Shown here in pieces: positions 32,068 through 61,889 of a stretch of DNA of 64,000 nucleotides; within the stretch, counting starts at the first letter, position 1, and the number at the start of each line of letters is the position of its first letter. The notes under the pieces are model-generated. The model did no database searches. It was not told the DNA's origin and saw only the letters and a list, made by a program, of their open reading frames with translations. This stretch comes from Vicinamibacterales bacterium. GTDB taxonomy: Bacteria > Acidobacteriota > Vicinamibacteria > Vicinamibacterales > JAMQPK01. A program made the position numbers and the translations under genes. Where the stretch lies: assembly GCA_036556585.1 (NCBI GenBank), contig DATBJG010000415.1, forward strand, positions 131 to 64,130. Direction: 5' to 3'.

Positions 32068-33066
32068 ATGCCTGACTCAGGCATAGCCGTTGTCTGCGGA
32101 GCTGGCGGCTTCATTGGAGGGCACCTCGTCGGGCACCTCCTGGAGCATCGTCGGTTACGCGTGCGCGCTGTTGACGTCAAGCCGGGTCATCAGTGGCACC
32201 AACGCCACCGCGCTGCCGAAAATCTGGAGCTCGACCTCTCTGAGCTGGGGTCATGCCGTCGTGCCCTGGTCGGAGCTGCTGAGGTCTACAACCTTGCCGC
32301 TGACATGGGGGGCATGGGGTTCATCGAGCGCAACAAGGCGTTGTGCATGCTGAATGTCCTCATTAACACCCATTTGCTCCTGGCAGCGCGCGACGAGCGT
32401 GTGCAGCGGTTCTTCTATGCATCTTCGGCGTGTGTCTACAACGCTTCCCGACAGGCCTCGCCGGAAGTTACACCGCTTCGCGAAGAAGACGCGTACCCCG
32501 CAATGCCGGAAGACGGGTATGGCTGGGAAAAGTTGTTCGGCGAGCGCATGTGCCGTCACTTCGACGAGGACTTTGGTCTGAACACGCGCGTGGCGCGCTA
32601 CCACAACGTGTACGGTCCGTTCGGCGCGTACGACGGCGGCCGCGAAAAGGCTCCTGCGGCAATCTGCCGCAAGGTTATCGAGGCCAAGAGGTCTGGCCGC
32701 CATGAGATTGAAATCTGGGGAACGGGCAACCAGACCCGAAGTTTCACTTACATTGCCGACTGTCTCGAGGGTACCGCCAGGCTGACCGAAAGCACTGTCT
32801 GCGAACCGGTGAACGTGGGGAGTTCCGAGCGGGTGACGATCAACCAGCTTGTCGACATGGTGGAAACCATCGCTGGTATACGGTTGACTCGCCGATACAA
32901 CCTTTCCGCCCCGAATGGTGTCAACGGTCGCAACAGCGACAACACCAAAGTTCGCGCCTTGCTCGGCTGGGAGCCCACGACTCCTCTCGTTTCCGGAATG
33001 GAGGCGACGTATCGGTGGATCCACGACGCGATGCATGTTCCGACCAGAGGTGCCGTGTGCGCCTGA
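32068..33066 (+). CDS. NAD-dependent sugar-nucleotide epimerase closely resembling GDP-mannose 3,5-epimerase
   Basis: 332 aa with a Rossmann motif (GAGGFIGGHL). There are long identities to the plant/bacterial GME pattern as I remember it: NLAADMGGMGFI, RFFYASSACVY, GGREKAPAAICRK, QTRSFTYI, EPVNVGS and NGRNSDN. Confidence 0.72.
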   Translation: MPDSGIAVVCGAGGFIGGHLVGHLLEHRRLRVRAVDVKPGHQWHQRHRAAENLELDLSELGSCRRALVGAAEVYNLAADMGGMGFIERNKALCMLNVLINTHLLLAARDERVQRFFYASSACVYNASRQASPEVTPLREEDAYPAMPEDGYGWEKLFGERMCRHFDEDFGLNTRVARYHNVYGPFGAYDGGREKAPAAICRKVIEAKRSGRHEIEIWGTGNQTRSFTYIADCLEGTARLTESTVCEPVNVGSSERVTINQLVDMVETIAGIRLTRRYNLSAPNGVNGRNSDNTKVRALLGWEPTTPLVSGMEATYRWIHDAMHVPTRGAVCA

Positions 33067-34325
33067 TCGCGGCCGACCGATCGAAGCATTGCATGGTGGC
33101 AGCATGCCTGGCCGTTTTCGTGTCGGCCAGTCAGGCGGCTGCCCAGTCACCACCGGCAGGGGAGCCTCCATCGCCGTTCCAGTTGAAAAGCGGTGCGTTC
33201 ACCGTGACGCCGGCGGTTCGACTCGTGGATGTAGGGGTCGAGACGAACGTCTTCAGTACTGGTGAACGCGCCTCTGATTTCACCGCGACCGTCGAGCCAC
33301 AACTCGAAGCACGAATTCAGCGGACACGTTTCGACGTTCGTGCCACAGGTCGCGCTGGCCTCGTGTACTACCAGGAGTTCGCGAGTGAACGTGCGTTCAA
33401 TCCAGGGGTCCGTCTGCAGGCCGAGCTCCGCAGGAGCTCACGGCTCGCGTTCTATGGCGATGCCGACGTCGGTTATACCAACGGGCGATCAGGCCCAGAG
33501 GTCGATGCGCGGGTCCGCAGTTTCGTCCGGCTGTTCAAGGCTGGAACCCGAATCGGCGGTCACAAGCTGCAGCTTGACGTGAACGGATCGTACACGGACG
33601 TCGAGGTGGACGAATCCGAGGAATTCATGCATGTCCAACTGGAGGACACGCTCAACCGTACTGTGCAACTGGGGTCGGTCAAGCTCCTTCATCACTTGAC
33701 GCCGTACACCGGCTTGACGTTCACGGCCGAAGGACTGCAGCAACGGTTCCCCCGGGCACCCGAACGAGACATTGATTCGGTCAGCGGCACGGTCGGTGTC
33801 GACCTCAGTCCTCAGGCGCTCATTGGCGGGACTGCCGCGATCGGCTATCGCTCGGCGAACCCGTTGCACGACATCACGCCCGAGTTCGCGGGCCTCATTT
33901 ACCGTGGCGGGATCAGCAGTACGGTGCGGGATCGACTCTCCCTGTCGGTCGGCGCCGAGCGCGATATCGATCCTTCGTACCGGTACGACGCGCCGTACTA
34001 CGAGTACGACCTGTACGAGGCCGGCGCGCAACAGGTGCTCTGGCGTCGGCTCGATGTGGGAATCAGCGGGTCTCGCACGAAGATCAAGTATCACGCTTTT
34101 ACAAGCGGTGTGTTCGAGGGTGACACACGCGAAACATTGGACAACCTGACGGTGAGCGTCGGACTGCGCATGACTCGGCACAACCGCGTGTCCGGCTACA
34201 TCTCACAGTGGCGACGTGTGAACGGCGCCAATCCCTACAAAGACATTCAGGTCGGCATGATGGTGACGGTCGGCCGCGTGTCGGTCAGCGAACGTGGCGT
34301 TTTTCTGAACGGTCCCACGAGATGA
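33057..34325 (+). CDS. Secreted protein, candidate outer-membrane beta-barrel associated with polysaccharide export
   Basis: Signal peptide (..MVAACLAVFVSASQAAAQ) followed by about 400 aa of alternating-polarity, Gly/Tyr/Arg-rich segments typical of a barrel. The start is either GTG 33057 or ATG 33093. The stop overlaps the wza start (ATGA). The function is inferred from context. Confidence 0.5.
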   Translation: MRLIAADRSKHCMVAACLAVFVSASQAAAQSPPAGEPPSPFQLKSGAFTVTPAVRLVDVGVETNVFSTGERASDFTATVEPQLEARIQRTRFDVRATGRAGLVYYQEFASERAFNPGVRLQAELRRSSRLAFYGDADVGYTNGRSGPEVDARVRSFVRLFKAGTRIGGHKLQLDVNGSYTDVEVDESEEFMHVQLEDTLNRTVQLGSVKLLHHLTPYTGLTFTAEGLQQRFPRAPERDIDSVSGTVGVDLSPQALIGGTAAIGYRSANPLHDITPEFAGLIYRGGISSTVRDRLSLSVGAERDIDPSYRYDAPYYEYDLYEAGAQQVLWRRLDVGISGSRTKIKYHAFTSGVFEGDTRETLDNLTVSVGLRMTRHNRVSGYISQWRRVNGANPYKDIQVGMMVTVGRVSVSERGVFLNGPTR

Positions 34326-35221
34326 CAGAGGAATCTGGAATGGGAAAGCGCTCTCGAGGGTGTCGCGGGGCGACGGTCAAGCTCCTCGGATCTCTTGCAG
34401 CAGCCATCTGGTTGTCGGCGGCTGCGGTCACGCTGGCGCAGTCGCCCGCTGCGCCGGCTCCTGGTCGTGCCGATTACGTGATTGGCGTGCAGGACATTCT
34501 CAACATCACGGTCTGGGAGCATGAAGACCTCGACGGAAAGTTCACGGTTCAGCCCGACGGAACGATAACGCTGCCGCTCATAGGACGGCTGGCGGCGGCG
34601 GGCCTCACGATTCGTGAGTTTGAAACTGACCTGGTTCGGGCACTGTCCGAGGGGTTCATTCGACAACCACGTGTTGCCATCACGTTCGATCAGATTCGAG
34701 GCCGGCGCGTCTTCATTTTTGGCAATGTGGCAGCGCCCGGCACGTACCCGCTGACCGAAGGACAGACGTTGATCGAAGCGCTGGCCAAGGCTGGCTATGG
34801 TGTCGCCTCGGAGGCGGTCGTCGTACGACCGAAGCATCCGTCAGGTCCGAAATTGCCGGAGCATGCCAGCGACGGAGAGGTGCTGCGAATCAACTTGCGT
34901 GAGCTGGAAAAAGACGTGCAGCACGGATCGCTCGGACGCAACGTGATTCTGCACGATGGCGACACGGTGTTCGTGCCGCGCGACGACCCCACACGAATCT
35001 TCGTGACCGGCCACGTGCGTAACCCCGGAGCGTACTCGATTGCTGAGGGTACCACCGTGCTGCAAGTGCTTGCCCTGGCCGGCGGGGCCACAGAGGAAGC
35101 CGCGATCAACCGTCTCAAAGTCCTGCGAATTGTCGAAGGCAAACAGCAGTCGATCAAAGTCAAGCTGTCCGACCCAATCCGCGCGGGCGACACCCTTGTG
35201 ATTCCCGAAAGGTTCTTCTGA
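34322..35221 (+). CDS. wza: Polysaccharide export (OPX/Wza family) protein, short form
   Basis: About 299 aa with a signal peptide, a Poly_export motif region (YVIGVQDILNITVWEHEDLDGKFTVQPDGTITLPLIGRLAAAGLT) and two SLBB-like segments. It ends ...GDTLVIPERFF with no further C-terminal segment. An alternative ATG lies at 34340. Confidence 0.85.
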   Translation: MTEESGMGKRSRGCRGATVKLLGSLAAAIWLSAAAVTLAQSPAAPAPGRADYVIGVQDILNITVWEHEDLDGKFTVQPDGTITLPLIGRLAAAGLTIREFETDLVRALSEGFIRQPRVAITFDQIRGRRVFIFGNVAAPGTYPLTEGQTLIEALAKAGYGVASEAVVVRPKHPSGPKLPEHASDGEVLRINLRELEKDVQHGSLGRNVILHDGDTVFVPRDDPTRIFVTGHVRNPGAYSIAEGTTVLQVLALAGGATEEAAINRLKVLRIVEGKQQSIKVKLSDPIRAGDTLVIPERFF

Positions 35222-37548
35222 TGTCCGATTCCCTGGTTCAGGGTCCTGACGAGAGGCCTCGGCCGACGGTGGTGCATCCACACCCCCACTCACGCGCGAC
35301 CCCGTGGACGCCCGCACTGGTCGATCTGCTCGGCGGACACCCGGGAGAGTCCCGGTCGTTGTTCGATTGGCGGGAATGGATCCGGACATTACGACGACGC
35401 TGCTGGCCGGCCCTGACGGTATTTGTCGTCGTACTCATCGGAGCGTTCTTTCACGCCCTGACCCGCGTCCCCGTCTACCAAGCGCGAGTACGTGTCCTGA
35501 TTGAACCGAATCGGGCCAACATGACGGGTTTGACCGATCCACTCGAAGCGGACTACGCGGAGGCAGACTTTCTGACCCAGTTCATGATTCTCCAGAGTCG
35601 ATCGCTTGCACGACGAACCATGGAGACGCTGGGAGCCTGGGACCAAACAGGCGAGACGCCGCCGCCAGTGCCGGGGTCCTGGAGCGCTTTCGTTCAGACA
35701 CTCGAGGATGGGGCCCGCCGAACGTTTGCTTGGACACGCGAACGCGCCGGTTTTGCTTCTCCGACCAGCCCTGCCGAGCCGCCGGCCCCCGACGAAAGTG
35801 TGGTCGACACGGCAAAGATCAACAGCTTTTTGACCGGGCTCCGTGTGATTGCGATTCCGGGCAGCAGGCTTGTCGACGTGTTCTACGAATCCCGGGATCC
35901 TCATGTGGCGTCGACAACGGCCAACACCATCGTTCAGCAATTCATCCAGCAGAACCTCGAATTGCGGTTTCTCGCCTCCAAGGAGGCCACCGAGTGGTTG
36001 AACGAGCGGCTTGGTGAACAACGCAAGGCGCTCGATGCATCAGTAGAGGCGCTGCGCGCTTACCAGCGGAAAAACGGGATTGTGCCGGTGGGTGAGCAGG
36101 CCAGCGTGACGGTTCAGAAACTCACCGATTTGACGACGGCCTATACGAAGGCAAAGACAGACCGCATCGAAAAGGAGACGCTGTTTAACCAGCTCGAGAT
36201 GTCGGCGAGAGATCGTAGCAGCCTCGATGCGTTTCCCGTCATTGCCAACAATCCGATCGTCCAGGAGCTCAAGTCTGAGCTCATCTCTCTACAGCGCCAG
36301 GAAGCGCAGCAGTCCGAAAAGCTTGGTGACCGTCATCCCACCCTCATCAAGACACGCGAGGGTGTCCGCAACGCCGAAGGGAGGCTGCGCGTCGAGATGA
36401 CCAAGGCTGCCGAATCGGTCCGCGCCGAATATCAGTCAGCCAGGGCGGCCGAATCGAGCCTCGGCCGGGCGCTCGAGTCACAACGTAAGGAGATGCTCTC
36501 GCTCAACCGGAGCGACGTCGAGCTCGCGGTCTTGCAGCGTGACATGGAGAGCAACCGGCAGATTTACGACAGCCTGCTTCAGCGTGTGAACGAGTTTGGG
36601 GTTACTCGCGAACAGCGGATCAGCAATCTGAGGATTGTCGACCGCGCCGAAGTGCCGCAGGCTCCGCTGGCCACGGGTATCCGCACGGACCTGAGGCTCG
36701 GCCTGCTCGGCGGCCTTCTGCTCGCAATCGGGATGGCATTTCTCCTGGAGCGTCTGGACAATCGCGTCAAGCTTCCAGAACAAATCGGAAGCGAACTGGG
36801 ACTCACGTTTCTCGGCATGGTCCCGCTTGTCGGTGAGGACGAGCTGACGCGCCCCCTGCTCGTCGATCGACCTGTCCCGGCGGGATTTGGGGAAGCTATT
36901 CGTGCATTCCGTACGAATGTTCGCCTGTCGATTGCTTCCGATGGCTTACGGTCGGTCGTGGTCACCAGTGCGTGCGCCGGCGACGGCAAGACCCTCGTCG
37001 CCAGCAACCTCGCCTTAACGCTTGCGATGGCCGAGCAACGTGTTCTCCTCATCGACGCCGATCTGCGGCGGCCGAGCCTGCATACCACCTTCGACCTCAA
37101 GAAGGAACCCGGGTTGACCAACTTCCTCATCGGAGATGGTCAGGCTGCCAGCATCATCCGACGAACCCGCGTACCCGGATTGCATATCCTGACGTCGGGG
37201 ACCCTCCCGCCAAATCCCTCGGAGCTCCTCGACTCGAGACGATTCAAGAAGTTCCTGTTGCAGCTCGGCAAGTACTACGACTGGGTGGTGCTCGATTCAC
37301 CGCCCGTCATGCCGGTCACAGACGCCATTGTCCTGGCCGACGTCGCGTCGGGTGTGATTTTTGTGACCGCGGCAGAGACGACCCCGCTACCGGCGGCGCG
37401 TAGCGCCATCGAGCAGTTGCGACGCGCGCCAGCTCCAGTACTGGGCGCGGTGTTGAACCGGGCAGACCTGAAGCGCCGCAGCTACTACTACACCAAGTAC
37501 TACAAGCGCGACTATGAGGGGTATTACGAGCGTGCCACCTCAGCCTGA
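35221..37548 (+). CDS. wzc: Polysaccharide co-polymerase / tyrosine autokinase (Wzc/GumC-type PCP-2a)
   Basis: 775 aa with two TM segments flanking a long coiled periplasmic region. The kinase Walker A is SACAGDGKT, Walker A' is LLIDADLRRP and Walker B is VVLDSPPV. The C-terminal tail RRSYYYTKYYKRDYEGYYERATSA carries 8 Tyr. Confidence 0.88.
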   Translation: MSDSLVQGPDERPRPTVVHPHPHSRATPWTPALVDLLGGHPGESRSLFDWREWIRTLRRRCWPALTVFVVVLIGAFFHALTRVPVYQARVRVLIEPNRANMTGLTDPLEADYAEADFLTQFMILQSRSLARRTMETLGAWDQTGETPPPVPGSWSAFVQTLEDGARRTFAWTRERAGFASPTSPAEPPAPDESVVDTAKINSFLTGLRVIAIPGSRLVDVFYESRDPHVASTTANTIVQQFIQQNLELRFLASKEATEWLNERLGEQRKALDASVEALRAYQRKNGIVPVGEQASVTVQKLTDLTTAYTKAKTDRIEKETLFNQLEMSARDRSSLDAFPVIANNPIVQELKSELISLQRQEAQQSEKLGDRHPTLIKTREGVRNAEGRLRVEMTKAAESVRAEYQSARAAESSLGRALESQRKEMLSLNRSDVELAVLQRDMESNRQIYDSLLQRVNEFGVTREQRISNLRIVDRAEVPQAPLATGIRTDLRLGLLGGLLLAIGMAFLLERLDNRVKLPEQIGSELGLTFLGMVPLVGEDELTRPLLVDRPVPAGFGEAIRAFRTNVRLSIASDGLRSVVVTSACAGDGKTLVASNLALTLAMAEQRVLLIDADLRRPSLHTTFDLKKEPGLTNFLIGDGQAASIIRRTRVPGLHILTSGTLPPNPSELLDSRRFKKFLLQLGKYYDWVVLDSPPVMPVTDAIVLADVASGVIFVTAAETTPLPAARSAIEQLRRAPAPVLGAVLNRADLKRRSYYYTKYYKRDYEGYYERATSA

Positions 37549-39073
37549 AGCCCGCGCGTTGTTCAGAAACGTGGGGAGTCGTGCCGTTCTGTTGCCACAC
37601 TCCCAAGACGTGGCGACAGGTGTCGACGGCACGACATGGGCGCGCGAAGCTCGACTCGGGCCCAAGCGCCAGGAGATCGTCTTTGGCCATGCCGTCCTTT
37701 GTGCGGATGCGCTCGTTCTGATGGCAAGCTTTCTCATCGCGTACATGGTTAGAGACGGGCTCGTGTGGTATGGCGGCCTGCTTCCGCTGCAATCCCATGT
37801 GTGGGTGATTGGATTGATTCTTCCAATCTGGCTCATCCTCGCGCAGGTCATGGGCCTCACTGACTCCACCACATACTTGCGGTCTCGACCTCCCCTCGTG
37901 CAAACGCTCAAGGTGCACGCAATCTCCGGGCTGTTGCTGTTGAGTGCGCTGTACCTGCTCAGAGCGACCGACGTCAGCCGATTGTTCATGCAGACGTTTC
38001 TCGTCATTGGCGGTGGAGTTTTCATGCTCGAGCGCATCGCCATCCGCGCCACACTGGGGCACCTTGGCAGGCATCGCCCAGGCCATGCGCGGCGCGTGCT
38101 CATCATCGGCACCACGCCGGAGGCCGCACGACTGCATCGGTTGCTCGGGCGTCGGCCGCATTGGGGCGCTGAAATCGTGGGGTTTGTCACAGCCGGCTCG
38201 GCGCCGCTCAACCACTTCTCGGGGCTCCCGGTGATGGGGAACGTCGACGATTTCGAATCGGTGCTCGAAGAACACGTCCTGGACGAGGTGGTGCTGGCCG
38301 ATGGCAGCCTCGATCCGCAGAGTGTCGAACAACTGGCGCAAACCTGCGTTGAGCGCGGGTTGACATTCGATGCGCTCGTCCGGATGCCCACCATGACCCC
38401 GGCTCGACATCATGCAGAGATGCTTGGCGAAGGTCTCTACCTCATGTCGCTCGAAACGGCCCCACAGAACCCGGGCATGCTCTTCATCAAGCGCGCCATT
38501 GACGTGGTGGGGGCCTGCGCGGGCCTGGTCCTGTTGACGCTGGCGTTCGTGATCGTGGCGCCACTCGTTCGGCTCGAGTCACGAGGACCGGTCATCTTTC
38601 GACAGCGGCGCATTGGCAGGAACGGCCGGTACTTCGCGCTTTACAAGTTCCGCACCATGAGAAGTGATGCCGCGTCCCAGAAGGCGCAGCTGACCGACGC
38701 CAATGAAATGCGCGGCCATCTTTTCAAGATTCGTAACGATCCTCGCGTCACTCTGGTGGGCCGATTCCTGCGGAAGACGTATTTCGATGAGCTGCCGCAG
38801 TTCTGGAACGTGCTCAAGGGCGACATGAGCCTGGTCGGCACGCGACCGCCAACGCCAGATGAAGTTGCCCGCTATTCACCCCATCACCGCCGGCGGTTGA
38901 GTGTGCGCCCCGGGATGACCGGCCTCTGGCAGATCGCGGGGAATGGGCGTGTCCGCGACTTCGAAGAAGTCGTTCGTCTGGATTGCGACTACATCGAGCG
39001 ATGGTCGATCTGGCTCGACCTTTCCATCCTGATGCGGACCTGTCTCACAGTTGCACGGCTGGGCGGCCACTAG
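37514..39073 (+). CDS. Polyprenyl-phosphate hexose-1-phosphate transferase (WbaP/EPS sugar transferase family), initiating enzyme
   Basis: 519 aa with N-terminal TM segments. The C-terminal bacterial sugar transferase domain shows FALYKFRTM, DELPQFWNVLKGDMSLVGTRPP and PGMTGLWQI. The exact start is uncertain: ATG 37514 overlaps wzc by 35 nt, and an in-frame GTG lies at 37532. Confidence 0.85.
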   Translation: MRGITSVPPQPEARALFRNVGSRAVLLPHSQDVATGVDGTTWAREARLGPKRQEIVFGHAVLCADALVLMASFLIAYMVRDGLVWYGGLLPLQSHVWVIGLILPIWLILAQVMGLTDSTTYLRSRPPLVQTLKVHAISGLLLLSALYLLRATDVSRLFMQTFLVIGGGVFMLERIAIRATLGHLGRHRPGHARRVLIIGTTPEAARLHRLLGRRPHWGAEIVGFVTAGSAPLNHFSGLPVMGNVDDFESVLEEHVLDEVVLADGSLDPQSVEQLAQTCVERGLTFDALVRMPTMTPARHHAEMLGEGLYLMSLETAPQNPGMLFIKRAIDVVGACAGLVLLTLAFVIVAPLVRLESRGPVIFRQRRIGRNGRYFALYKFRTMRSDAASQKAQLTDANEMRGHLFKIRNDPRVTLVGRFLRKTYFDELPQFWNVLKGDMSLVGTRPPTPDEVARYSPHHRRRLSVRPGMTGLWQIAGNGRVRDFEEVVRLDCDYIERWSIWLDLSILMRTCLTVARLGGH

Positions 39074-39158
39074 GTCGGATTTCGGAGCTGGGCTTTCGGC
39101 TCTCGAGTCGCAACAGCCCAGGATCAGAGATCACGTAGCCGAAAGGCGAAAGCCGAAT
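39074..39158. repeat. Intergenic heptamer-family repeat block with its two halves in opposite orientation
   Basis: gtcggat ttcggag ctgggct ttcggct ctcgagt ... agccgaa aggcgaa agccgaa. The left half is in TCGG orientation and the right half in CCGA orientation. Confidence 0.55.
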
Positions 39159-49462: not shown

Positions 49463-49467
49463 CCGAC

Positions 49468-52333: not shown

Positions 52334-52338
52334 AAGAA

Positions 52339-55869: not shown

Positions 55870-55873
55870 TGGT

Positions 55874-56488
55874 ATGAGCCCGGGGCCTGAACCCGATCGC
55901 GTCATCAGACTCGTCGTTGATGTTGACGAGGCCAAAGCGTACGGGACGTCCGGTCGATTCGGGTCGCGCCGCTCCAGCTTTTCGCTTCGCCATCGCCTTG
56001 CCCGCCAGAGCTGGAACCTTGTCTGGCTGTTCCTATTTCGACCAACACCACGCCCGTTTCACGCGTGGCGTCGACTGCTGTTGCGATGTTTTGGCGCGCA
56101 GGTCGCACCCGGAGCGCGGATCTATGCGGGAGCCCGTATCTGGGCTCCGTGGAATCTGGTGGCGGGTCGCGGGGCGGCCATTGCTGATGGAGCGGAGGTC
56201 TACAACCCGTGCCGGATTGAACTGGGTGAGTACGCCGTCATTTCCCAGGGTGCGTGCCTCTGTGGTGCAGGCCATGACTTCGAATCCTGGGAGTTCCCGC
56301 TGCTCTCGGCGCCGATTGTGATTGGAGCGCATGCCTGGGTTGCGGCGCGAGCCATTGTGCGGATGGGGGTGACGATTGGCGCGGGGTGTGTCGTGGGTGC
56401 CGGCAGTGTGGTGACACGCGATATGCCTGCGTGGACAGTGTGTGCCGGTGTGCCGTGTCGGGTCATTCGTGCATACACAAAACGCTGA
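55874..56488 (+). CDS. Left-handed beta-helix (hexapeptide) O-acetyltransferase, WcaF-like
   Basis: 204 aa. The WcaF-type N-terminus is WNLVWLFLFRPTPRPFHAWRRLLLRCFGAQV. Hexapeptide repeats follow (IGAHAWVAARAIVRMGVTIGAGCVVGAGSVV). Confidence 0.8.
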   Translation: MSPGPEPDRVIRLVVDVDEAKAYGTSGRFGSRRSSFSLRHRLARQSWNLVWLFLFRPTPRPFHAWRRLLLRCFGAQVAPGARIYAGARIWAPWNLVAGRGAAIADGAEVYNPCRIELGEYAVISQGACLCGAGHDFESWEFPLLSAPIVIGAHAWVAARAIVRMGVTIGAGCVVGAGSVVTRDMPAWTVCAGVPCRVIRAYTKR

Positions 56489-56510
56489 CAACACGAGGCC
56501 GCCGGTTCGC

Positions 56511-57599
56511 GTGCTCCTCGTGGCACCCTGCTTTGGGGATTACGGTGGGATCGAAGCGTTTACGTTGGCAGTCGCCGACACACTCATGAAAGACGCGCGG
56601 TTTGAAGTACGAATCTTCTTCAAGCGCACGGCGAACTTTGCACTGCGTCAGAGTCTGGCGCAACAGTGTCGAGCGTATCCGGTTGAGTTCTGTTCGCGGG
56701 CCAGTCGGTCGCTGGCCGCGGCGGTTGCCTGGGCGGACATTGTGCACAGTCAGAATCCCTCGGTCGACGTCGCGTTCATGAGCGGCATTCTGCGGAAAAC
56801 CCGCGTCTTGAGCGTTCACAACGTTCTTCCATTACGGCCTATCGCGCAGCGGGTCGGCTGGCAGATGTCCGCCTCCCTGGCCAGCGTGCGCTGGTACAAC
56901 TCACACTTCGTCTGGAAGACCTGGGAGCCGGGCCAACCGAGTGCGGCCAGTTTCTGCGTACCGCCCACGTCGCGATTGGCGACCGCAGATGTGGCCCCAG
57001 ACGCCCGCCGTGGATTTGTCTTTGTAGGCCGGTTCGTCCCTGGCAAAGGCGCGGACGTGCTCCTCGAGGCCTACAAACAGGCGAAGCTCAATCCCAGGGT
57101 GTGGCCGCTGACGTTCATTGGCGACGGGCCACTGGGTCGCGCGCTGAGGGATCGGTCGGCTGGTGAACGAATCGATGGCGTTCGATTTGCCGGGTTCATC
57201 GACGGCGAGATGAAGGCGAGGACGCTCGGAGGGGCCAAGTGGTTGGTGGCCCCTTCGCATTGGCGAGAACCATTTGGATTGGTCGCCCGGGAAGCGCGCA
57301 GGCTCGGCGTTCCCTGCATCGTGACGCGTGATGGTGGGTTGCCCGAGGCCGCGGGACGCGATGCCCTCGTGTGCGAGCCCGGCGACGTCGACGGCCTGAC
57401 CACGCTGCTGAAACGCGCGGCATCGATGCCTTGGGAGGAGTACGTGCGCCGGGCCGCTCGTACCAAGGAAGATCTCCGTCACCAGCAAGTGCCGCCGACC
57501 TTCTATCCGGAAACGTATCTCACGCTTCTGAAGCGCGAACCTGTCAGCGTCGGTCGAGAGATCGGACCACGCGCTGTCGACCAAACAGGAAGTCTGTGA
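56511..57599 (+). CDS. Glycosyltransferase family 4
   Basis: The frame is open from 56442. GTG 56511 is the first start after the upstream stop (VLLVAPCFGDYGGIEAF). Also present are FVFVGRFVPGKG and LVAPSHWREPFGLVAREARRLGVPCIVT. Confidence 0.75.
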   Translation: MLLVAPCFGDYGGIEAFTLAVADTLMKDARFEVRIFFKRTANFALRQSLAQQCRAYPVEFCSRASRSLAAAVAWADIVHSQNPSVDVAFMSGILRKTRVLSVHNVLPLRPIAQRVGWQMSASLASVRWYNSHFVWKTWEPGQPSAASFCVPPTSRLATADVAPDARRGFVFVGRFVPGKGADVLLEAYKQAKLNPRVWPLTFIGDGPLGRALRDRSAGERIDGVRFAGFIDGEMKARTLGGAKWLVAPSHWREPFGLVAREARRLGVPCIVTRDGGLPEAAGRDALVCEPGDVDGLTTLLKRAASMPWEEYVRRAARTKEDLRHQQVPPTFYPETYLTLLKREPVSVGREIGPRAVDQTGSL

Positions 57600-58468
57600 C
57601 GGTATCGACCGCGACCTCTCCGGTTGTGACATCGTTGCACACGCGAACTGTCAGGTCGTCGGTGCCTGTATCGGTGATTGTGCCCGTCAGAAACGAAGCG
57701 CATCAGATCGAGCGCTGTCTGCGGTCGGTGTCGTGGGCCGACGAAGTGTTCGTTGTCGATTCACAAAGCTCCGACAACACCAGCGGAATTGCCGAGATGC
57801 TGGGGGCAACTGTCGTGCAGTTCCGCTATACCGGTTCCTGGCCCAAGAAGAAGAGCTGGGCCCTCGAGAATCTGCCATTTCGAAACGATTGGGTTCTGCT
57901 GCTCGATGCCGACGAGGTCATGCCGTCGGAAGCCGAAGCGGAAATTCGTGCCGTGGTGGCGGCGAAAGAGTCGCTGATCAAGGGCTTTTGGATCAATCGT
58001 CGCTTCTTCTTCATGGGCCGTTGGTTGCGCCATGCGTACTATCCCAACTGGAACGTTCGGCTCTTCCAACATCAATTCGGGCGTTTCGAGCGCCTGACAT
58101 CCGTAGACACCAACAGCGGCGATGTCGAGATTCACGAGCACGTCCTCATCGATGGTCCAACCTCAAAGCTCCGCTGCGAAATGGAGCACTTTGCGTTCCC
58201 AACAGTGTCGGCATTCGTCGAGAAACACAATCGCTATTCCTCCTGGGAAGCTCACGTAGCGCTGGCGCCGAAGGTTTCGCGGTCCTGGATGAGGCGATGG
58301 ATGACATGGCTGCCATTCCGGCCCCTGCTGAGGTTCCTGTACGTCTATATCTGGCAACGAGGGTTCCTCGACGGCCGGGCTGGGTACTACTTCGCCCGAC
58401 TGCACGGGTGCTATGAACTGCTGAGCGTCGCCAAGACCTACGAGCTCCGCAGCCACAAGCGGGCCTGA
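57596..58468 (+). CDS. Glycosyltransferase family 2
   Basis: The GTG at 57596 (GTGA overlap). Contains VSVIVPVRNEAHQIERCLRSV, VFVVDSQSSDNT and VLLLDADEVM. Confidence 0.8.
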   Translation: MTVSTATSPVVTSLHTRTVRSSVPVSVIVPVRNEAHQIERCLRSVSWADEVFVVDSQSSDNTSGIAEMLGATVVQFRYTGSWPKKKSWALENLPFRNDWVLLLDADEVMPSEAEAEIRAVVAAKESLIKGFWINRRFFFMGRWLRHAYYPNWNVRLFQHQFGRFERLTSVDTNSGDVEIHEHVLIDGPTSKLRCEMEHFAFPTVSAFVEKHNRYSSWEAHVALAPKVSRSWMRRWMTWLPFRPLLRFLYVYIWQRGFLDGRAGYYFARLHGCYELLSVAKTYELRSHKRA

Positions 58469-58473
58469 CACCG

Positions 58474-59745
58474 GTGCGCATCCACATCATCGGCATCAAC
58501 TACTGGCCGGAAGCCACCGGCATTGCTGTGTTCACCACAGGCCGTGCGGAGTACCTGGCGGCCTGCGGACACGAGGTGAACATGTGCGCCGCGGTGCCCT
58601 ACTACCCCGAATGGCGAGTCGCAAACGAGTATCGTCGACGCTCATTTGCGGTAGAGCGGCGTGGGGGTGTGAGAATCTTCCGGTGTCCTCTCTATGTCCC
58701 CGCGATTGCGACCACGTTCCGGCGCATTTTGCACGAGGGGTCGTTCGCCCTCGCGGCACTGGCGCGAAGTCTGTCGATGCCTCGCCCCGACGTGCTTCTC
58801 ATCGTGTCACCGCCACTGGGCTTGTCTCTGGTCGCATTCCTGCTGAGTTGCTGGTGGCGTGCGCCGTACGTGTTTCATGTTGCCGATCTTCAGCCAGATA
58901 CGGCGCTGGACCTCGGCATGATGAAGGCGGGCACCGTCGCGCGGTTTCTCTACGCACTGGAGCGATTTGCCTATCGGCATGCCGCCAAGGTGTCGACGTT
59001 GACCGATGCCATGCGCGCGAAAATCCTGGCGAAAGACATACCCCCGAAGAACGTCCTCCTCTTTTCAGATTGGGCCGATCCGCGCCTGTTTGATCTGGAA
59101 CCGGGGCGGCCCGACCCTGAGATCAGGCACGAGCTCAGACTCGACAATGACTTCATTGTTCTGCATGCGGGCAACATGGGCGTCAAGCAGGGGCTTCATG
59201 TGGTGCTCGAGGCGGCGCGGCGTACAAAAGATCCGACGATGCGGTATGTCTTCGTTGGCGATGGGGTGATGAGACACGAACTCGAGGCGCGTGCGCGTGC
59301 CATGAACCTTGCAAACGTGCGGTTTCTGCCGCTGCTGGATCGGGGTCGATTTGAACGCCTGCTCGCGGTCGCAGATCTCTGCCTCGTCACCCAGCAACGG
59401 ACCGTCGCTGACGTCGTGTTTCCTTCGAAGGTTCTTACCCTCCTGGCGGCCGCCAAACCGGTTGTGGCCTCCGTTGCGGCAGCCAGCGAAGTGGCGCGTG
59501 TGGTCAAAGCCGCGGAAGCGGGCGAGGTGGTGGCACCGGAAGATCCGGACCGGCTTGCGCGGGCGATTGCAAAGCTGCGAGGTAGCAAGGCGCGTCGAAG
59601 CCAAATGGCCGAGAGCGGGCGCAATTACGCACGACGGCACTGGGATCGCGACCGAACACTGCAGCATCTGGCAGCAAGACTTGAACGAATCATGGAGTCA
59701 CACCCCCACCGCATGCCTGCGCGCGAGGCGGTTCGTCGTTCATGA
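58474..59745 (+). CDS. Glycosyltransferase family 4, WcaI/WbuB-like
   Basis: GTG start giving MRIHIIGINYWPEATGIAVFTTGRAEYLAACGHEV (a WcaI-type N-terminus). Also IVLHAGNMGVKQGL and VVFPSKVLTLLAAAKPVVA. Confidence 0.85.
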   Translation: MRIHIIGINYWPEATGIAVFTTGRAEYLAACGHEVNMCAAVPYYPEWRVANEYRRRSFAVERRGGVRIFRCPLYVPAIATTFRRILHEGSFALAALARSLSMPRPDVLLIVSPPLGLSLVAFLLSCWWRAPYVFHVADLQPDTALDLGMMKAGTVARFLYALERFAYRHAAKVSTLTDAMRAKILAKDIPPKNVLLFSDWADPRLFDLEPGRPDPEIRHELRLDNDFIVLHAGNMGVKQGLHVVLEAARRTKDPTMRYVFVGDGVMRHELEARARAMNLANVRFLPLLDRGRFERLLAVADLCLVTQQRTVADVVFPSKVLTLLAAAKPVVASVAAASEVARVVKAAEAGEVVAPEDPDRLARAIAKLRGSKARRSQMAESGRNYARRHWDRDRTLQHLAARLERIMESHPHRMPAREAVRRS

Positions 59746-61889
59746 CAGTCACCGCGGTGACGTACGCGTCAGTGCCATGGCGACTGGAAGGACGTACGCC
59801 AGGCAGAGTGCTGTTGGTGCTTGTATCGTGGGGAACGTTGCTCTTTGGCGCGGTGTACCCATGGTCCTATGTTCCGCTGCTGAGCGCCGCGGTGATCTTC
59901 GGCCTCTTCGGGTGGCTGAGTGCGACCGCCGAGCAAAAAGCAGGGGCGATGCCAATTCTGATGGCCTTGCTGCTTGTGGCGGTTGTCGTCGTCATTCAAC
60001 TGATACCACTGCCGGTTGCATGGGTCGCGCGATTGAGCGGAGCCGCAGACGGCCTCTTGCGAGAGTACGACCTCGCGTACGGCATGGCGCGGGCGGCCGG
60101 TGATCAGCCTTGGCATGCAATGTCGATCTCGCCGGCGGCAACCGCCCGAGGGCTGTCGTTTCTGATTGCACTGGGTGTGTTCCTGGCGGGCTGCACGGTC
60201 TTGCTGCCGCGCATGTCAATGATCTGGCTGGTCCGTCGGCTGGTTGCGCTTGGAGTGGCTGTTGCGATTTTTGGCATCCTCCAGCGGCTGACATTCAACG
60301 ACCGGATTTACTGGGTCTGGACGCCCGTGAACGTCGCGAGCAACACGTTTGGCCCGTTCGTCAATCGAAATCACTTCGCAACCTGGATGCTGATGTTGAG
60401 TGCTCTGACTTCTGGCTACTTGTGTGGTCTGCTGGCAGAGGCCGCATCGCCAGCATCCAAATCGTGGCGCGACCGGGCGGCCTGGCTTTCGTCCAGCCGT
60501 ACCAACGAGATATTCCTCGCAGGTTGCAGTCTGGTGCTGATGCTCCTGTCCATTGTCTGGACGCTGTCGCGTTCGGGCATGGCCGCCGCCCTTACGTCCG
60601 CCATTCTCGTGTCGATGGGCTCGATGTTGCGACTGCGGGGCATCCGGCGGTTTGTGGCGGCCGGGTCCGTAATCGCGGCCCTGGCTGTAGCCGTCTTCTG
60701 GAGGGGGACGGGCGACGTCATCGAATGGTTCAGTCGCACCTCCAGCCTCGCCTGGCGGTTCCAGTTGTGGCAGGACACATGGCCAATCGTCCGTGACTTT
60801 CCGTGGTGGGGGACCGGCCTCAATACCTATGGCGTGTCCACGCTCCTCTATCCGATGACCGATGGCAACTGGCATCCGAACGAGGCGCATAGCGACTATT
60901 TGCAACTGCTGAGCGAGGGTGGCGTGGTGCTCGTTGTGGCCGTCATTGCCGCGGTCACAACGGTCACGTGGCGTGTTTACCGCGCGTTCCGACAACCGCA
61001 ACGTACGCTAACCCGGTGGATCCGACTCGGTGCGGTCAGTGGCCTTGTGGCTGTGGCGATTCAGGAGAGCGTGGACTTCGGCCTGCAGATGCCCGGTAAC
61101 GCCACGATGTTTGTCGTGCTGCTGGCAATTGCGCTTCACGATGGACGAGGCAGAATGCATCCTCTGTCGCCTGTCTCACCGAGCCCGAGTCCGGTCTGGA
61201 TTTCCCAATCTGGCGGGCGACGCACGATTGCCGCGACGGGGATGTCACTTATTGCCGTGATAGTCGCAGGTTGCGGCACGCCGCCCACGCGTACTGATCT
61301 GCAGGTTGTTCGCCCCGGCGTCAGAGCGCAGTATCACGAGACAACAGGACGACTGCGCCTGCTCGAATTCGACGCCGACAAGAATGGCGCCGCAGACTCG
61401 ATCGCGCACATGGATGGCGCGCGTGTTCTGTTCATCGAGGTCGACGCCGACGAAGATGGAACAGTCGATCGATGGGACTACTACACACCCGAACGCAAGA
61501 TTGAAAAGACCGGCCTCGCGCGAGCGCGAGATGGAAAGCTCGATACGTGGATCGTGGAAGGCTCGAACGGCGCGGTAGAGCGTGTGGAGGTCTCCACGCA
61601 CCGTGATGGGGTGCCCAATCGCGTGGAGTACTTTGACGCCGGTCGACTGATACGGAGCGAAGAAGACACCAACGCAGACGGGCGCATCGACAAATGGGAA
61701 ACCTATCGCCTGCTGCCTGGAGGAAGTCCAAGCAACCCATTCGCGTATGCCGTCGCGACAGCGGCGTTCGATTTTTCTGCTCGCGGCAGGCCAGAGCGTC
61801 GGTTCATTTACTCACCTACCGGAGGAATCGAGCGGGTTGAGGTCGACCCCGACGGTCGCGGAATATTTGTCACGGTTTCAACCCGGTAA
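59742..61889 (+). CDS. O-antigen ligase family (Wzy_C domain) membrane protein fused to a C-terminal DxDxDG-repeat domain
   Basis: 715 aa. Residues 1-470 are polytopic with GPFVNRNHFATW, LSRSG, WWGTGLNTY and NEAHSDYLQLLSEGG. From Cys511 onward the sequence is a paralogue of the lipoprotein at 30456-31076 (EVDADEDGTVDRWDYY, DTNADGRIDKWETY). Confidence 0.8.
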   Translation: MTVTAVTYASVPWRLEGRTPGRVLLVLVSWGTLLFGAVYPWSYVPLLSAAVIFGLFGWLSATAEQKAGAMPILMALLLVAVVVVIQLIPLPVAWVARLSGAADGLLREYDLAYGMARAAGDQPWHAMSISPAATARGLSFLIALGVFLAGCTVLLPRMSMIWLVRRLVALGVAVAIFGILQRLTFNDRIYWVWTPVNVASNTFGPFVNRNHFATWMLMLSALTSGYLCGLLAEAASPASKSWRDRAAWLSSSRTNEIFLAGCSLVLMLLSIVWTLSRSGMAAALTSAILVSMGSMLRLRGIRRFVAAGSVIAALAVAVFWRGTGDVIEWFSRTSSLAWRFQLWQDTWPIVRDFPWWGTGLNTYGVSTLLYPMTDGNWHPNEAHSDYLQLLSEGGVVLVVAVIAAVTTVTWRVYRAFRQPQRTLTRWIRLGAVSGLVAVAIQESVDFGLQMPGNATMFVVLLAIALHDGRGRMHPLSPVSPSPSPVWISQSGGRRTIAATGMSLIAVIVAGCGTPPTRTDLQVVRPGVRAQYHETTGRLRLLEFDADKNGAADSIAHMDGARVLFIEVDADEDGTVDRWDYYTPERKIEKTGLARARDGKLDTWIVEGSNGAVERVEVSTHRDGVPNRVEYFDAGRLIRSEEDTNADGRIDKWETYRLLPGGSPSNPFAYAVATAAFDFSARGRPERRFIYSPTGGIERVEVDPDGRGIFVTVSTR

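Follow-up and report, generated by a model that had tools for sequence, protein, structure and literature searches.

Gene content of the locus

The host, a soil acidobacterium, carries a single 31-kb operon-like polysaccharide locus. It lies in the 64-kb stretch of DNA analysed here (the window), which is part of a 64.7-kb contig of a metagenome-assembled genome. Between positions 31073 and 61889 we found 27 genes, all co-directional (Table 1). At every junction a candidate start is located 1–4 nt inside the previous stop or at most about 50 nt away, and promoter-like or terminator-like sites are no more frequent across the locus than expected. The 27 genes are probably co-transcribed. Scans with Pfam and NCBIfam recovered every element named in a first-pass annotation of this DNA, at the same coordinates.

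Table 1. Features of the polysaccharide locus and its surroundings (window positions)
Feature	Position	Strand	Evidence
Second, orphan Wzm/Wzt pair outside the locus	21150–23391	+	ABC2_membrane 8.8e-19; ABC_tran plus Wzt_C 9.8e-29
Lipoprotein-like protein, DxDxDG (EF-hand-like) motifs	30456–31076	+	EF-hand matches weak
Enhancer-binding-protein-like regulator, AAA+ plus HTH_8	31073–32062	+	Sigma54_activat 3.7e-28, HTH_8
NAD-dependent sugar epimerase/dehydratase	32068–33066	+	PF01370 1.1e-39
BBP2_2 outer-membrane beta-barrel, presumed porin partner of short OPX	33093–34325	+	PF10082 1.9e-14
Class-3-type OPX	34322–35221	+	Poly_export, two SLBB domains, no Wza_C helix
PCP-2a co-polymerase with C-terminal BY-kinase, Wzc-like	35221–37548	+	Wzz, GNVR, AAA_31 domains
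WbaP/WcaJ-type polyprenyl-phosphate hexose-1-phosphate transferase	37514–39073	+	Bac_transf 7.6e-66, CoA_binding_3
GT4a (39051–40304), methyltransferase MTa (40283–41137), GT1b (41131–42387)	39051–42387	+	Pfam/NCBIfam scans
polyA, divergent Wzy_C-superfamily (GT-C_B fold) membrane enzyme	42375–43694	+	Homologues, AF2 fold, profile match
Nested ABC module, GT2c to Acyl_transf_3	43691–53514	+	Pfam/NCBIfam scan
Wzm	44591–45433	+	ABC2_membrane protein
Wzt	45430–46752	+	ABC_tran plus Wzt_C
Core tail: GT4h, GT4i, hexapeptide acetyltransferase (55874–56488), GT4j, GT2k, GT4l	53537–59745	+	Pfam/NCBIfam scan
Canonical Wzy_C (O-antigen-ligase family) protein	59742–61889	+	PF04932 5.1e-23

The regulator is without a receiver domain and its Walker A and GAFTGA motifs are degenerate (GEPGTGRE, GRTAGE); a search for sigma-54 promoters gave none scoring above chance. 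The lipoprotein-like protein upstream of it and the C-terminal part of the terminal Wzy_C protein (61182–61889) are paralogous domains with 41% identity over 206 aa, and the related locus L003 has a free-standing homologue upstream of its barrel gene.

The barrel gene directly precedes the OPX gene, and the order barrel-OPX-Wzc is also found in L003, L085, L166 and L168. Because of its Poly_export and two SLBB domains, the product of 34322–35221 is an OPX protein, of Class 3 as defined in PMC9603273. It had been called Wza; the protein is short, the Wza_C helix is missing, and only residues 85–287 of E. coli Wza could be aligned. For the Wzc-like protein, the TIGR01007 model of tyrosine autokinases gives 178.8 bits (cutoff 108). 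Its Walker A, A' and B motifs are present and 8 of its last 30 residues are Tyr, all of which bears out the description as a PCP-2a tyrosine kinase. The predicted phosphoglycosyl transferase is indeed WbaP-type (TIGR03025, 384.7 bits, cutoff 295.6) and, according to the Pfam and NCBIfam scans, is the only initiating enzyme of the locus.

The ABC module consists of GT2c, Wzm, Wzt, GT1d, GT2e, MT24 (CmcI-like), GT4f, GT2g, MT23 and Acyl_transf_3; the same scans found no initiating transferase within it (43.7–53.5 kb). Wzt was assigned because it combines ABC_tran with Wzt_C (37.8 bits, cutoff 30.4), so that both halves of the exporter annotated at 44591–46752 are there. The module overlaps its upstream neighbour by 4 nt at 43691 and is followed by a candidate start at most 25 nt past 53514, so that translational coupling to both flanking genes is predicted. 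Between Wzt and the Wzy_C gene the annotation had counted 10 transferase genes; there are 13 genes, namely 9 glycosyltransferases, 2 methyltransferases, 1 Acyl_transf_3 and 1 hexapeptide acetyltransferase. The methyltransferases closest to the exporter are three genes off (MT24 downstream of Wzt, MTa upstream of Wzm), and in L003, L005, L083, L166 and L170 a methyltransferase gene lies at most two genes from Wzm/Wzt. This arrangement would be compatible with Wzt_C reading a methyl cap, as it does in E. coli O9a.

The Wzy_C domain of the terminal protein scores 82 bits against a cutoff of 31.7, in support of the proposed ligase-family enzyme. The motif His is retained (EAHSDY, aa 381–386), and a lipoprotein-like domain with an internal IVAGC is fused at the C-terminus (approximately 61182–61889), a fusion present only in the closest relatives.

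The polytopic protein at 42375–43694

The protein that we call polyA has no direct match in Pfam or NCBIfam, but PF04932 is matched by 10 of 30 of its homologues. A profile-profile comparison with the Wzy_C family gave P = 3.9e-4 over 220 columns. The AF2 model (pLDDT 86.5) had FtsW as best matches in the PDB and no MOP match. The presumed catalytic residues are invariant; so are E338 and E340, which flank the ligase His position. Thus, polyA is a divergent Wzy/WaaL/SEDS-fold enzyme and probably a Wzy-type polymerase. The first-pass annotation had considered that this protein might score as a Wzx flippase; given its fold and the lack of a MOP match, we reject this role.

Flippase genes in the window and in related loci

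No open reading frame in the whole 64-kb window matched a MOP/Wzx model of Pfam or NCBIfam, and a profile of the Wzx-like family from sister loci found nothing in it (best E = 0.15). The reported lack of a visible Wzx therefore extends from the locus to the window. A Wzx encoded off-locus is possible, since only a 64.7-kb contig of the genome is available.

Most members of this Wzx-like sister family are unmatched in Pfam and NCBIfam, and a single one matches PF13440. Their names are "O-antigen/teichoic acid export membrane protein" at JGI and, for some, "polysaccharide biosynthesis protein" at NCBI. In hhalign, the family aligned with E. coli WzxC over 320 columns (P = 1.2e-4; controls P >= 0.025). 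The AF2 model was poor (pLDDT 42). We assign the family to Wzx with moderate confidence.

The comparison set comprised about 170 related loci from several phyla, in which flippase genes were scored within 10 kb of the polyA-like gene. One count covered 164 loci, and the 82 related loci >= 15 kb were taken as well covered. A Wzx-like gene is present in 45 of the 164 and Wzm/Wzt in 8; later look-ups brought the latter to 11, not counting the window. The two occur together in no sampled locus within this distance. For the 82 well-covered loci the probability of no overlap is 0.017, a modest value that ignores kinship. Neither gene is found within 10 kb in 37 of the 82 (about 45%), among them Chthoniobacterales loci that are also without a Wzx-like gene beside Wzc; the flippase gene must therefore often lie outside the sampled range.

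Two syntenic pairs illustrate the alternation. In Chthoniobacterales, L060 and L020 are collinear (46–77% aa identity); L020 has a Wzx-like gene between Wzc and the next gene that is exactly absent from L060, which carries Wzm/Wzt after the acetyltransferase gene. In Acidobacteriaceae, L083 and L075 share epimerase and WecG-like genes, which are followed in L075 by a Wzx-like gene and in L083 by Wzm/Wzt plus methyltransferase and GT2 genes. Judged by gene order, both are clean exchanges of one exporter type for the other.

The remainder of the locus is conserved. GT1b is a near-constant upstream neighbour of polyA (81 of the 82 loci >= 15 kb). The tail genes GT4h, GT4i, hexapeptide acetyltransferase, GT2k and GT4l (53.5–59.7 kb) recur with the head genes (Wzc, phosphoglycosyl transferase, GT1b and polyA) in Acidobacteriota, Verrucomicrobiota and other phyla, and the core tail stays with polyA in different phyla, whether or not the locus has an ABC exporter. 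A Wzy_C-type gene lies downstream in 16 of the related loci >= 15 kb, some of them without an ABC exporter, and homologues of the terminal Wzy_C protein and of polyA are found on shared contigs. As tail genes recur with the head and a downstream Wzy_C gene in ABC-less loci, the Wzm/Wzt block is nested in a conserved core, not appended to it. The genes of the ABC module (43691–53514) are rare or absent in Wzx-type sister loci. In the clade of the window (window, L001, L003, L005, L085, L166, L170 and L171; polyA identity down to 47%), all loci with enough downstream sequence have phosphoglycosyl transferase, GT1b and polyA, then Wzm within 0–2 genes. The site varies by lineage: Wzm/Wzt can follow polyA, the acetyltransferase gene or the epimerase gene, or lie between Wzc and GT4j. 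Extra glycosyl- and methyltransferase genes always accompany Wzm/Wzt. The Wzt proteins encoded in such loci can be aligned between phyla from end to end, C-terminal domain included (42–60% identity), while only the nucleotide-binding domain of the orphan Wzt1 could be aligned with them.

Comparison with known systems

ABC-dependent O-polysaccharide export with a carbohydrate-binding domain on Wzt is known from E. coli O9a/O8 and K. pneumoniae O12. The locus has in common with them an ABC-2 permease, a Wzt_C protein, possible capping methyltransferases and a ligase-family enzyme. Wzy, a PCP-2a kinase and an OPX are absent from those systems, which normally start with WecA; conversely, we saw no coiled-coil kinase/methyltransferase terminator resembling WbdD in the locus. 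The S-layer glycan of Geobacillus stearothermophilus (WsaP, Wzm/Wzt, methyl cap, WsaB) likewise begins with a WbaP-type step, is methyl-capped and exported by Wzm/Wzt, and is transferred by a Wzy_C-family enzyme, but its acceptor is an S-layer protein and the pathway has no Wzy-like second enzyme, PCP-2a or OPX.

Group 2 capsules (KpsMT, KpsE, KpsD) resemble the locus in that an ABC-2 exporter is combined with PCP and OPX proteins for passage through the envelope. However, the PCP of our locus is a PCP-2a kinase and not a PCP-3 (TIGR01010, 16 bits, cutoff 437), and its OPX is Class 3 rather than the GfcC-domain type of Class 2. The locus also has a Wzy-like enzyme but no KpsS/C-type genes. The annotation had placed the locus outside the standard classification. 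That is true of a Wzy-like enzyme with PCP-2a and Wzm/Wzt, but not of ABC export with PCP/OPX proteins as such, which is standard in group 2 capsules.

XrtA/PEP-CTERM EPS loci share the barrel, OPX, chain-length determinant plus Tyr kinase, sugar transferase, an "O-glycosylation ligase"-like Wzy_C protein and an EBP-type regulator. The XrtA-associated NCBIfam models (TIGR03007, TIGR03013, TIGR03018, TIGR03027, TIGR03097) all stayed under their cutoffs in the window, which is also without an exosortase; an exosortase gene (EpsH) does lie 5 kb upstream of L168, a sister locus from Verrucomicrobiota. The EPS, MASC and BPS pathways of Myxococcus xanthus (PMC9603273, PMC9601211) share a WbaP-type transferase, a Wzy-type polymerase candidate, a PCP-2a with BY-kinase and a short OPX without Wza_C helix next to a beta-barrel gene. 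They differ from our locus, which has no Wzx/MOP in the locus or window, a nested Wzm/Wzt(Wzt_C) and a second, His-containing Wzy_C protein. Lactococcal and enterococcal dual-chain loci (PMC9574508, PMC7188991) likewise combine an ABC-dependent line with polymerase/co-polymerase components and GT-C enzymes acting outside the membrane; unlike here, these Gram-positive systems keep a Wzx-family flippase, are peptidoglycan-anchored and have no OPX or PCP-2a kinase.

A possible assembly pathway

Wzy-dependent EPS loci of the PEP-CTERM type, with PCP-2a, Class-3 OPX and beta-barrel, form a family that is widespread across phyla, and the locus is one of them. This lineage lacks a MOP (Wzx-like) flippase within the locus and has an ABC-2 exporter nested mid-locus instead. 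Our tentative reading, at a rough probability of 0.45, is that one pathway operates, with the ABC exporter providing the Wzy/Wzc/OPX machine with lipid-linked glycan. From the observed gene content, family assignments, ABC nesting, core conservation and either/or pattern of Wzx-like and Wzm/Wzt genes, we infer its biochemical steps and the substrate of Wzm/Wzt as follows. The WbaP-type transferase would start the glycan on undecaprenyl phosphate, cytoplasmic glycosyltransferases would extend it, and acetyl-, acyl- and methyltransferases would decorate or cap it. The capped end may be recognised by the C-terminal domain of Wzt, and Wzm/Wzt, replacing Wzx, would bring the lipid-linked glycan to the periplasmic face. 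The Wzy-like enzyme at 42375–43694 would then join the units under control of the Wzc-like PCP-2a, and the polymer would cross the outer membrane via the short OPX and beta-barrel. The terminal His-containing Wzy_C enzyme could ligate some of the product, with lipid A-core, another lipid or a protein as acceptor; we infer that, of the two Wzy_C-superfamily proteins, it is this one that ligates and polyA that polymerises.

That ABC export feeds the Wzc/OPX machinery was one of two readings in the first-pass annotation. The comparison favours it, because Wzx-like and Wzm/Wzt genes alternate in syntenic loci with polyA and Wzc kept intact, but it falls short of proof, since a Wzx might be encoded in the remainder of the genome. 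The co-directional, coupled genes, the single initiating transferase, the lack of MOP/Wzx in the window, clade synteny, full-length Wzt alignment and nearby methyltransferases also speak for one pathway. The 37 flippase-less loci, the modest statistic and the moderate assignment of the sister family speak against it. Moreover, to our knowledge every characterised Wzt with a C-terminal binding domain exports complete, terminated polymers that need no Wzy.

The main rival, doubtful but to be taken seriously, is two independent products: a self-contained ABC glycan module (43.7–53.5 kb) inserted into a conventional Wzx/Wzy EPS locus whose Wzx is encoded elsewhere in the genome. The module would make a methylation-capped O-antigen-like or glycoconjugate polymer, and either the terminal Wzy_C enzyme or an off-locus WaaL would ligate it. 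The extra glycosyl- and methyltransferase genes that always come with Wzm/Wzt would also be expected of such a module, off-locus flippases are plausible because so many related loci are flippase-less within 10 kb, and characterised Wzt_C-type transporters export finished polymers. Geobacillus S-layer glycosylation shows that WbaP-type initiation, Wzm/Wzt and a Wzy_C-family transferase can be self-sufficient. However, the module lacks an initiating transferase and seems translationally coupled on both sides, and an unrelated pathway does not predict that no locus has both exporters or that loss and gain are paired in two syntenic pairs.

Dual-chain assembly is improbable. In this scheme one Wzy_C-superfamily enzyme would act outside the cytoplasm as joining transferase and link a backbone exported by the ABC transporter to a separately made, Wzy-polymerised chain, giving a composite glycan as in lactococcal/enterococcal rhamnose-rich cell-wall polysaccharides. 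Two different GT-C_B-type enzymes and both kinds of machinery are present, and single loci combining ABC-dependent and Wzx/Wzy-like lines are known (PMC9574508, PMC7188991). Yet these precedents keep a Wzx-family flippase for the second chain, which is missing here, and both Wzy_C-superfamily proteins also occur in ABC-less sister loci, so that neither is specific to a joining step. The annotation's other reading, a head-to-tail fusion of an EPS locus (32–44.6 kb) with an ABC-dependent O-antigen locus and its ligase (44.6–61.9 kb), is superficially permitted by a split at the Wzm start but is very unlikely, as conservation links the 53.5–59.7 kb genes to polyA, GT1b and Wzc in ABC-less loci, a Wzy_C-type gene follows polyA there too, and the position of Wzm/Wzt within the core differs by lineage.

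An ABC exporter instead of the Wzx that relatives carry suggests that two supposedly separate routes of polysaccharide assembly may be mixable.

Organization of the locus

When every long plus-strand ORF was scanned with Pfam and NCBIfam models, the locus resolved into 27 co-directional genes, which are listed in the table together with their surroundings. The elements named by the first-pass annotation (a PCP-2a protein, an OPX protein, a phosphoglycosyl transferase, an ABC exporter and a Wzy_C protein) were all recovered. At every junction, a candidate start either overlaps the preceding stop by 1–4 nt or lies no more than about 50 nt away from it. Scans for sigma-70 promoters, terminators and sigma-54 promoters gave counts at or below chance as judged from shuffled sequence, so that transcription-unit boundaries cannot be drawn. 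The EBP-type regulator encoded by the first gene carries neither a receiver nor a sensor domain. Its Walker A motif (GEPGTGRE) has another residue in place of the lysine and the GAFTGA motif reads GRTAGE, a degenerate form, so that it may be unable to activate sigma-54.

The cumulative GC skew has its minimum at approximately 4–8 kb of the window. On its downstream side the locus is flanked by a gene for a small secreted CarboxypepD_reg/SdrD_B-like protein; the related locus L004 has such a gene downstream as well, and L171 has one upstream.

Features of the locus, its surroundings and selected related loci (GT, glycosyltransferase)
Feature	Position	Strand	Content
Origin region	1-15700	-	gyrB, dnaN, dnaA
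Genes after dnaA			yidC, jag-like R3H, mnmE, mnmG, rsmG, parAB (all within 1-15700), then ATP synthase genes
Orphan Wzm/Wzt	21150-23391		upstream of locus; then mfd, SurA-like gene, dus
Lipoprotein-like protein	30456-31076		
Whole locus	31073-61889	+	27 genes
EBP-like regulator	31073-32062	+	first gene
Epimerase and export genes		+	epimerase, BBP2_2 beta-barrel, OPX (Poly_export and two SLBB), Wzc-like PCP-2a
Phosphoglycosyl transferase	37514-39073	+	WbaP/WcaJ-type
Following genes		+	GT4a, methyltransferase, GT1b
polyA	42375-43694	+	divergent polytopic protein
GT2c and transporter genes		+	GT2c, Wzm, Wzt with Wzt_C domain
Following genes		+	GT1d, GT2e, CmcI-like methyltransferase, GT4f, GT2g, methyltransferase, Acyl_transf_3 protein
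Following genes		+	GT4h, GT4i, hexapeptide acetyltransferase, GT4j, GT2k, GT4l
Terminal Wzy_C protein	59742-61889	+	715 aa; last gene
Its C-terminal domain	61182-61889	+	235 aa
Small secreted protein	61909-62403		CarboxypepD_reg/SdrD_B-like
Wzx-like proteins (A2 alignment)	L043:761-2074, L020:3221-4552, L075:18860-20251		examples; 40 or more others in verrucomicrobial and acidobacterial loci
Sugar genes	L166:12157-17982		after the transporter genes
DUF6044 protein	L171:17531-19768		745 aa
Protein without family match	L171:11449-12921		490 aa
Exosortase (EpsH)	L168:2663-4192		verrucomicrobial, Wzx-type locus

Initiation and export components

The locus encodes the initiating polyprenyl-phosphate phosphoglycosyl transferase expected of a Wzx/Wzy pathway (Bac_transf 7.6e-66; TIGR03025, 384.7 bits against a cutoff of 295.6), and also the expected pair of a PCP-2a protein with BY-kinase and an OPX protein. 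The Wzc-like PCP-2a protein scores above the cutoff for the TIGR01007 tyrosine autokinase, possesses Walker A, A' and B motifs and has 8 Tyr among its last 30 residues. The OPX protein (299 aa) aligns to E. coli Wza only over residues 85–287, and the outer-membrane-spanning Wza_C helix is therefore absent. Class-3 OPX proteins consist of Poly_export and SLBB domains only, without Wza_C, and have a barrel gene alongside (PMC9603273); their combination with a beta-barrel porin has been described for Myxococcus (PMC9603273; PMC9601211). The same arrangement is found here, where the BBP2_2 barrel gene lies directly 5' of the OPX gene and overlaps it by 4 nt.

The locus differs from a Wzx/Wzy pathway in that the window lacks a MOP-family Wzx. 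None of the scanned ORFs of the 64-kb window matched PF01943, PF13440, PF14667 or PF03023, which agrees with the earlier remark that no Wzx was visible in the locus, and a profile of the Wzx-like proteins from sister loci reached an E value of 0.15 at best. A hidden GtrA-type small flippase in the locus was rejected because no unassigned coding space is left between the 27 genes.

A putative Wzy-like polymerase and a ligase-like terminal protein

The sequence of polyA, the divergent polytopic protein encoded upstream of the transporter, has no match in Pfam, NCBIfam or PDB sequences when searched directly; PF04932 (Wzy_C) is matched by 10 of 30 homologues (best E 9.4e-8). An AlphaFold2 model computed with 30 homologues had a pLDDT of 86.5 and a pTM of 0.88. 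Its best Foldseek match in the PDB was the SEDS polymerase FtsW, although the match is weak (E ~1e-2, TM 0.36–0.42), and no MOP, MurJ or MATE structure appeared among the PDB matches. The protein did not score as a Wzx flippase, which would have counted against the first-pass annotation by its own criterion; its matches are of the Wzy_C/SEDS type instead.

The terminal protein of the locus bears the hallmarks of the O-antigen ligase family (PF04932), with a Wzy_C score of 82 bits against a cutoff of 31.7 and a loop His within the EAHSDY motif at aa 381–386. The polyA family and the family of the terminal Wzy_C protein match over 220 columns (P = 3.9e-4) when their profiles are aligned, and the SRS/SRSG and GxGLG motifs of both superpose. 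This match is seen only between profiles, as hhalign of the polyA profile against the single terminal sequence found nothing. In the alignment, the catalytic His of the ligase falls between E338 and E340 of polyA, which are both invariant in its alignment (A1), as are, among others, R45-D46-P47, R172, S225-R226, R283 and R296.

As features of a Wzy-type polymerase we took the GT-C_B fold together with conserved Arg residues and, in the periplasmic loop, either His or an acidic residue. SEDS proteins and O-antigen ligases have been placed together in the GT-C_B fold class, inverting Wzy-type polymerase families belong to the same sequence clan as these two, and inverting polymerases have Asp or Glu where ligases have His (PMC10920833). 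From the fold and profile matches and from the Glu versus His at the ligase position, we infer at the level of motifs that polyA is a polymerase-like enzyme and that the terminal protein is ligase-like. The polyA family comprises 2,678 clusters at 50% identity with E <= 1e-3 (1,020 at E <= 1e-30), and neither Pfam nor NCBIfam has a dedicated model for it.

The terminal protein carries an extra C-terminal domain that is 41% identical to the lipoprotein-like protein encoded just upstream of the locus. The domain retains an internal signal/lipobox-like sequence (LIAVIVAGC) as well as DxDxDG calcium-binding-like motifs. Only the closest relatives share the fusion, and L003 has the homologue as a stand-alone gene 5' of the barrel gene.

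The ABC transporter

Wzm (PF01061, 4.9e-19) and Wzt (PF00005, 2.9e-20; PF14524, 37.8 bits against a cutoff of 30.4) together provide the ABC-2 permease and the Wzt_C-bearing nucleotide-binding protein by which ABC-dependent O-polysaccharide systems are recognized. The locus has three SAM methyltransferase genes, at 40283, 48674 and 51557, and in five relatives a methyltransferase gene is found within two genes of Wzm/Wzt. A WbdD-like chain-terminator architecture was not seen among the locus proteins.

Wzt proteins associated with these loci align with each other over their full length, C-terminal domain included, whereas their alignment with the orphan Wzt encoded upstream in the window is confined to the nucleotide-binding domain; the two C-terminal domains are unrelated. 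The orphan pair (Wzt_C E = 9.8e-29) is located between the ATP synthase genes and mfd without adjoining glycosyltransferases, and could be an O-antigen exporter.

In L166, genes for a dehydratase, an aminotransferase, a CMP-sugar synthetase and NeuB come after those of the transporter and point to a nonulosonic acid sugar, perhaps the cap read by Wzt_C. In L171 five genes, among them that of a DUF6044 protein, separate Wzm from Wzt, and a protein without family match is encoded between polyA and Wzm.

Wzx-like and Wzm/Wzt genes do not occur together in the related loci

In all, 170 related loci were gathered by looking up exact protein matches and by scanning GTDB species genomes and metagenome contigs, and their six-frame ORFs were searched with the window proteins. 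They stem from Vicinamibacterales and other Acidobacteriota, from many Verrucomicrobiota (especially Chthoniobacterales, including Chthoniobacter flavus), and from Abditibacteria, Armatimonadota, cyanobacteria, Methylomirabilota and Elusimicrobia. Of the 82 loci that span 15 kb or more, 81 contain GT1b, whose gene lies immediately upstream of polyA in every map inspected. Most loci have GT4h, GT4i and the hexapeptide acetyltransferase, about one third to one half have GT2k, GT4l, Wzc and the phosphoglycosyl transferase, and many have a Wzy_C-type protein downstream. Since this conserved core around polyA includes tail genes (53.5–61.9 kb), the tail of the window locus belongs with the head, the genes upstream of about 44.6 kb.

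A further family of polytopic proteins (about 440 aa, 10–11 transmembrane segments) is encoded in 45 related loci, usually directly after Wzc. Its members are labelled 'O-antigen/teichoic acid export membrane protein' by JGI and in some cases 'polysaccharide biosynthesis protein' by NCBI. Pfam and NCBIfam miss nearly all of them (one member matches PF13440), and searching PDB sequences with the family profile gave no match. The profile of the family aligns to E. coli WzxC over 320 columns (P = 1.2e-4), while four control membrane proteins gave P >= 0.025 over short stretches. An AlphaFold2 prediction from a shallow alignment yielded no usable fold (pLDDT 42). We assign this family to Wzx with moderate confidence on the basis of the database names, the PF13440 match and the profile comparison. 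A 481-aa protein of L167 was rejected as a flippase; it resembles a GT-C enzyme with a large loop, and neither profile matches it.

Wzm/Wzt are encoded no more than 10 kb from polyA in the window and in 11 relatives (L001, L003, L005, L026, L060, L083, L085, L095, L166, L170 and L171), and none of the related loci has both Wzm/Wzt and a Wzx-like gene. Among the loci of at least 15 kb, 39 have the Wzx-like gene, 6 have Wzm/Wzt and 37 have neither within the 10-kb range; the hypergeometric P of no overlap is 0.017 if relatedness is ignored. The exchange can be followed in two pairs of loci. L060 and L020, both from Chthoniobacterales, are collinear with 46–77% protein identity. In L020 the Wzx-like gene sits between Wzc and the next shared gene, whereas in L060 nothing separates these two and Wzm/Wzt are found after the acetyltransferase gene. 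L075 and L083 from Acidobacteriaceae have OPX, Wzc, GT4j, GT1b, polyA, an epimerase and a WecG-like transferase in common; past these genes, L075 contains the Wzx-like gene and L083 contains Wzm, Wzt, a methyltransferase and GT2 genes.

The position of Wzm/Wzt within the core varies among lineages, which suggests that they were acquired repeatedly. Within the clade of the window (polyA identity down to 47%), every locus with enough downstream sequence has the order phosphoglycosyl transferase, GT1b, polyA, with Wzm zero to two genes further on. All Wzm/Wzt-type relatives examined have intact, conserved copies of the Wzy-like enzyme and the PCP-2a kinase. In Wzx-type loci, GT1d, GT2e, the methyltransferase MT24, GT4f, GT2g and the Acyl_transf_3 protein are rare or absent, and GT2c and the methyltransferase MT23 occur only sporadically.

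Comparison with known systems

The architecture of the locus is real, conserved and unusual; we found no description of a locus combining Wzy, PCP-2a and Wzm/Wzt in the literature searched. It shares the WbaP-type transferase and PCP-2a with Wzx/Wzy pathways. With ABC-dependent O-antigen pathways it shares Wzm/Wzt with the Wzt_C domain and the ligase-family Wzy_C protein, but in those pathways the polymer is finished in the cytoplasm and neither Wzy nor PCP-2a is needed, whereas a Wzy-like enzyme and a PCP-2a kinase are present here. Group 2 capsule systems use a PCP-3 protein (KpsE) and a Class 2 OPX protein with GfcC domain (KpsD). The locus is not of this type because it has neither (TIGR01010 for PCP-3, 16.3 bits against a cutoff of 437.5; OPX domains are Poly_export and SLBB only).

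The locus also resembles XrtA/PEP-CTERM EPS loci, but all XrtA models stay below their cutoffs in the window (TIGR03027, 122 against 180; TIGR03018, 130.6 against 230.7; TIGR03007, 114 against 278.9; TIGR03097, 30.5 against 188), and the window has no exosortase (EpsH). In L168 an exosortase gene was found about 5 kb upstream of the barrel, OPX and Wzc genes, and this ties the locus family to PEP-CTERM/exosortase systems.

Models for the assembly pathway

The first-pass annotation had suggested, as one of two readings, a single pathway in which an ABC-exported, lipid-linked polymer is handed to the Wzc/Wza machinery. The either/or pattern of Wzx-like and Wzm/Wzt genes speaks for such a pathway, and a composite one that also includes the Wzy-like enzyme is the model we favour, at a probability of about 0.45. 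In such a composite pathway, the sole phosphoglycosyl transferase would initiate the glycan, which cytoplasmic enzymes would extend and cap. Wzm/Wzt, replacing Wzx, would carry it over the inner membrane, where polyA would join the units under the control of Wzc. The product would be exported by the Class-3 OPX protein and the barrel, and the His-containing Wzy_C enzyme would ligate some of it to an acceptor. A slightly more tentative extension is that, throughout this conserved Wzy/PCP-2a/OPX family, which spans several phyla, lipid-linked glycan can be delivered to the periplasmic polymerase by either a MOP flippase or a Wzm/Wzt pair with substrate-binding domain, the window being an ABC-fed example.

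In the main rival model, the ABC-dependent glycan is nested in the locus but made independently, and the Wzx for the core pathway is encoded elsewhere. Extra transferase genes always accompany Wzm/Wzt, as would be expected of such a module, and to our knowledge the Wzt_C-type transporters characterised so far invariably export polymers that are already complete and capped. Moreover, about 45% of the well-covered loci have neither transporter type in range, including Chthoniobacterales loci that also lack a Wzx-like gene beside Wzc, so that off-locus flippases clearly exist in this family. The alternation of the two transporter types points the other way, and we consider an independent glycan somewhat less likely than the composite pathway, though a serious contender. 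A dual-chain assembly comparable to that of Gram-positive rhamnose-rich wall polysaccharides (PMC9574508) is quite unlikely. Finally, the other reading offered by the first-pass annotation, a head-to-tail fusion of two assembly lines split at 44.6 kb, is essentially excluded, since the ABC block (43.7–53.5 kb) is nested inside the core and the tail genes are conserved partners of the head.

The assembly of bacterial surface polysaccharides is taught as a choice among three distinct strategies, namely Wzx/Wzy, ABC transporter and synthase. The interest of the locus lies in the recurrent choice between a Wzx-like protein and Wzm/Wzt in a conserved Wzy/PCP-2a/OPX core, which makes the supposed separation of two of these strategies directly testable. 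The analysis also gives provisional roles to the polyA-type Wzy-like family (about 2,700 clusters) and to the Wzx-like family, both missed by current Pfam and NCBIfam models. If the composite pathway holds true, the Wzx/Wzy- and ABC-dependent strategies would not be discrete, translocation across the membrane would be a module open to exchange, and Type V ABC exporters could supply a Wzy/Wzc machine with its substrates. Many loci of Acidobacteriota, Verrucomicrobiota and neighbouring phyla would then be misclassified when pathways are predicted from marker genes; these phyla dominate in soil, where their EPS shapes aggregation.
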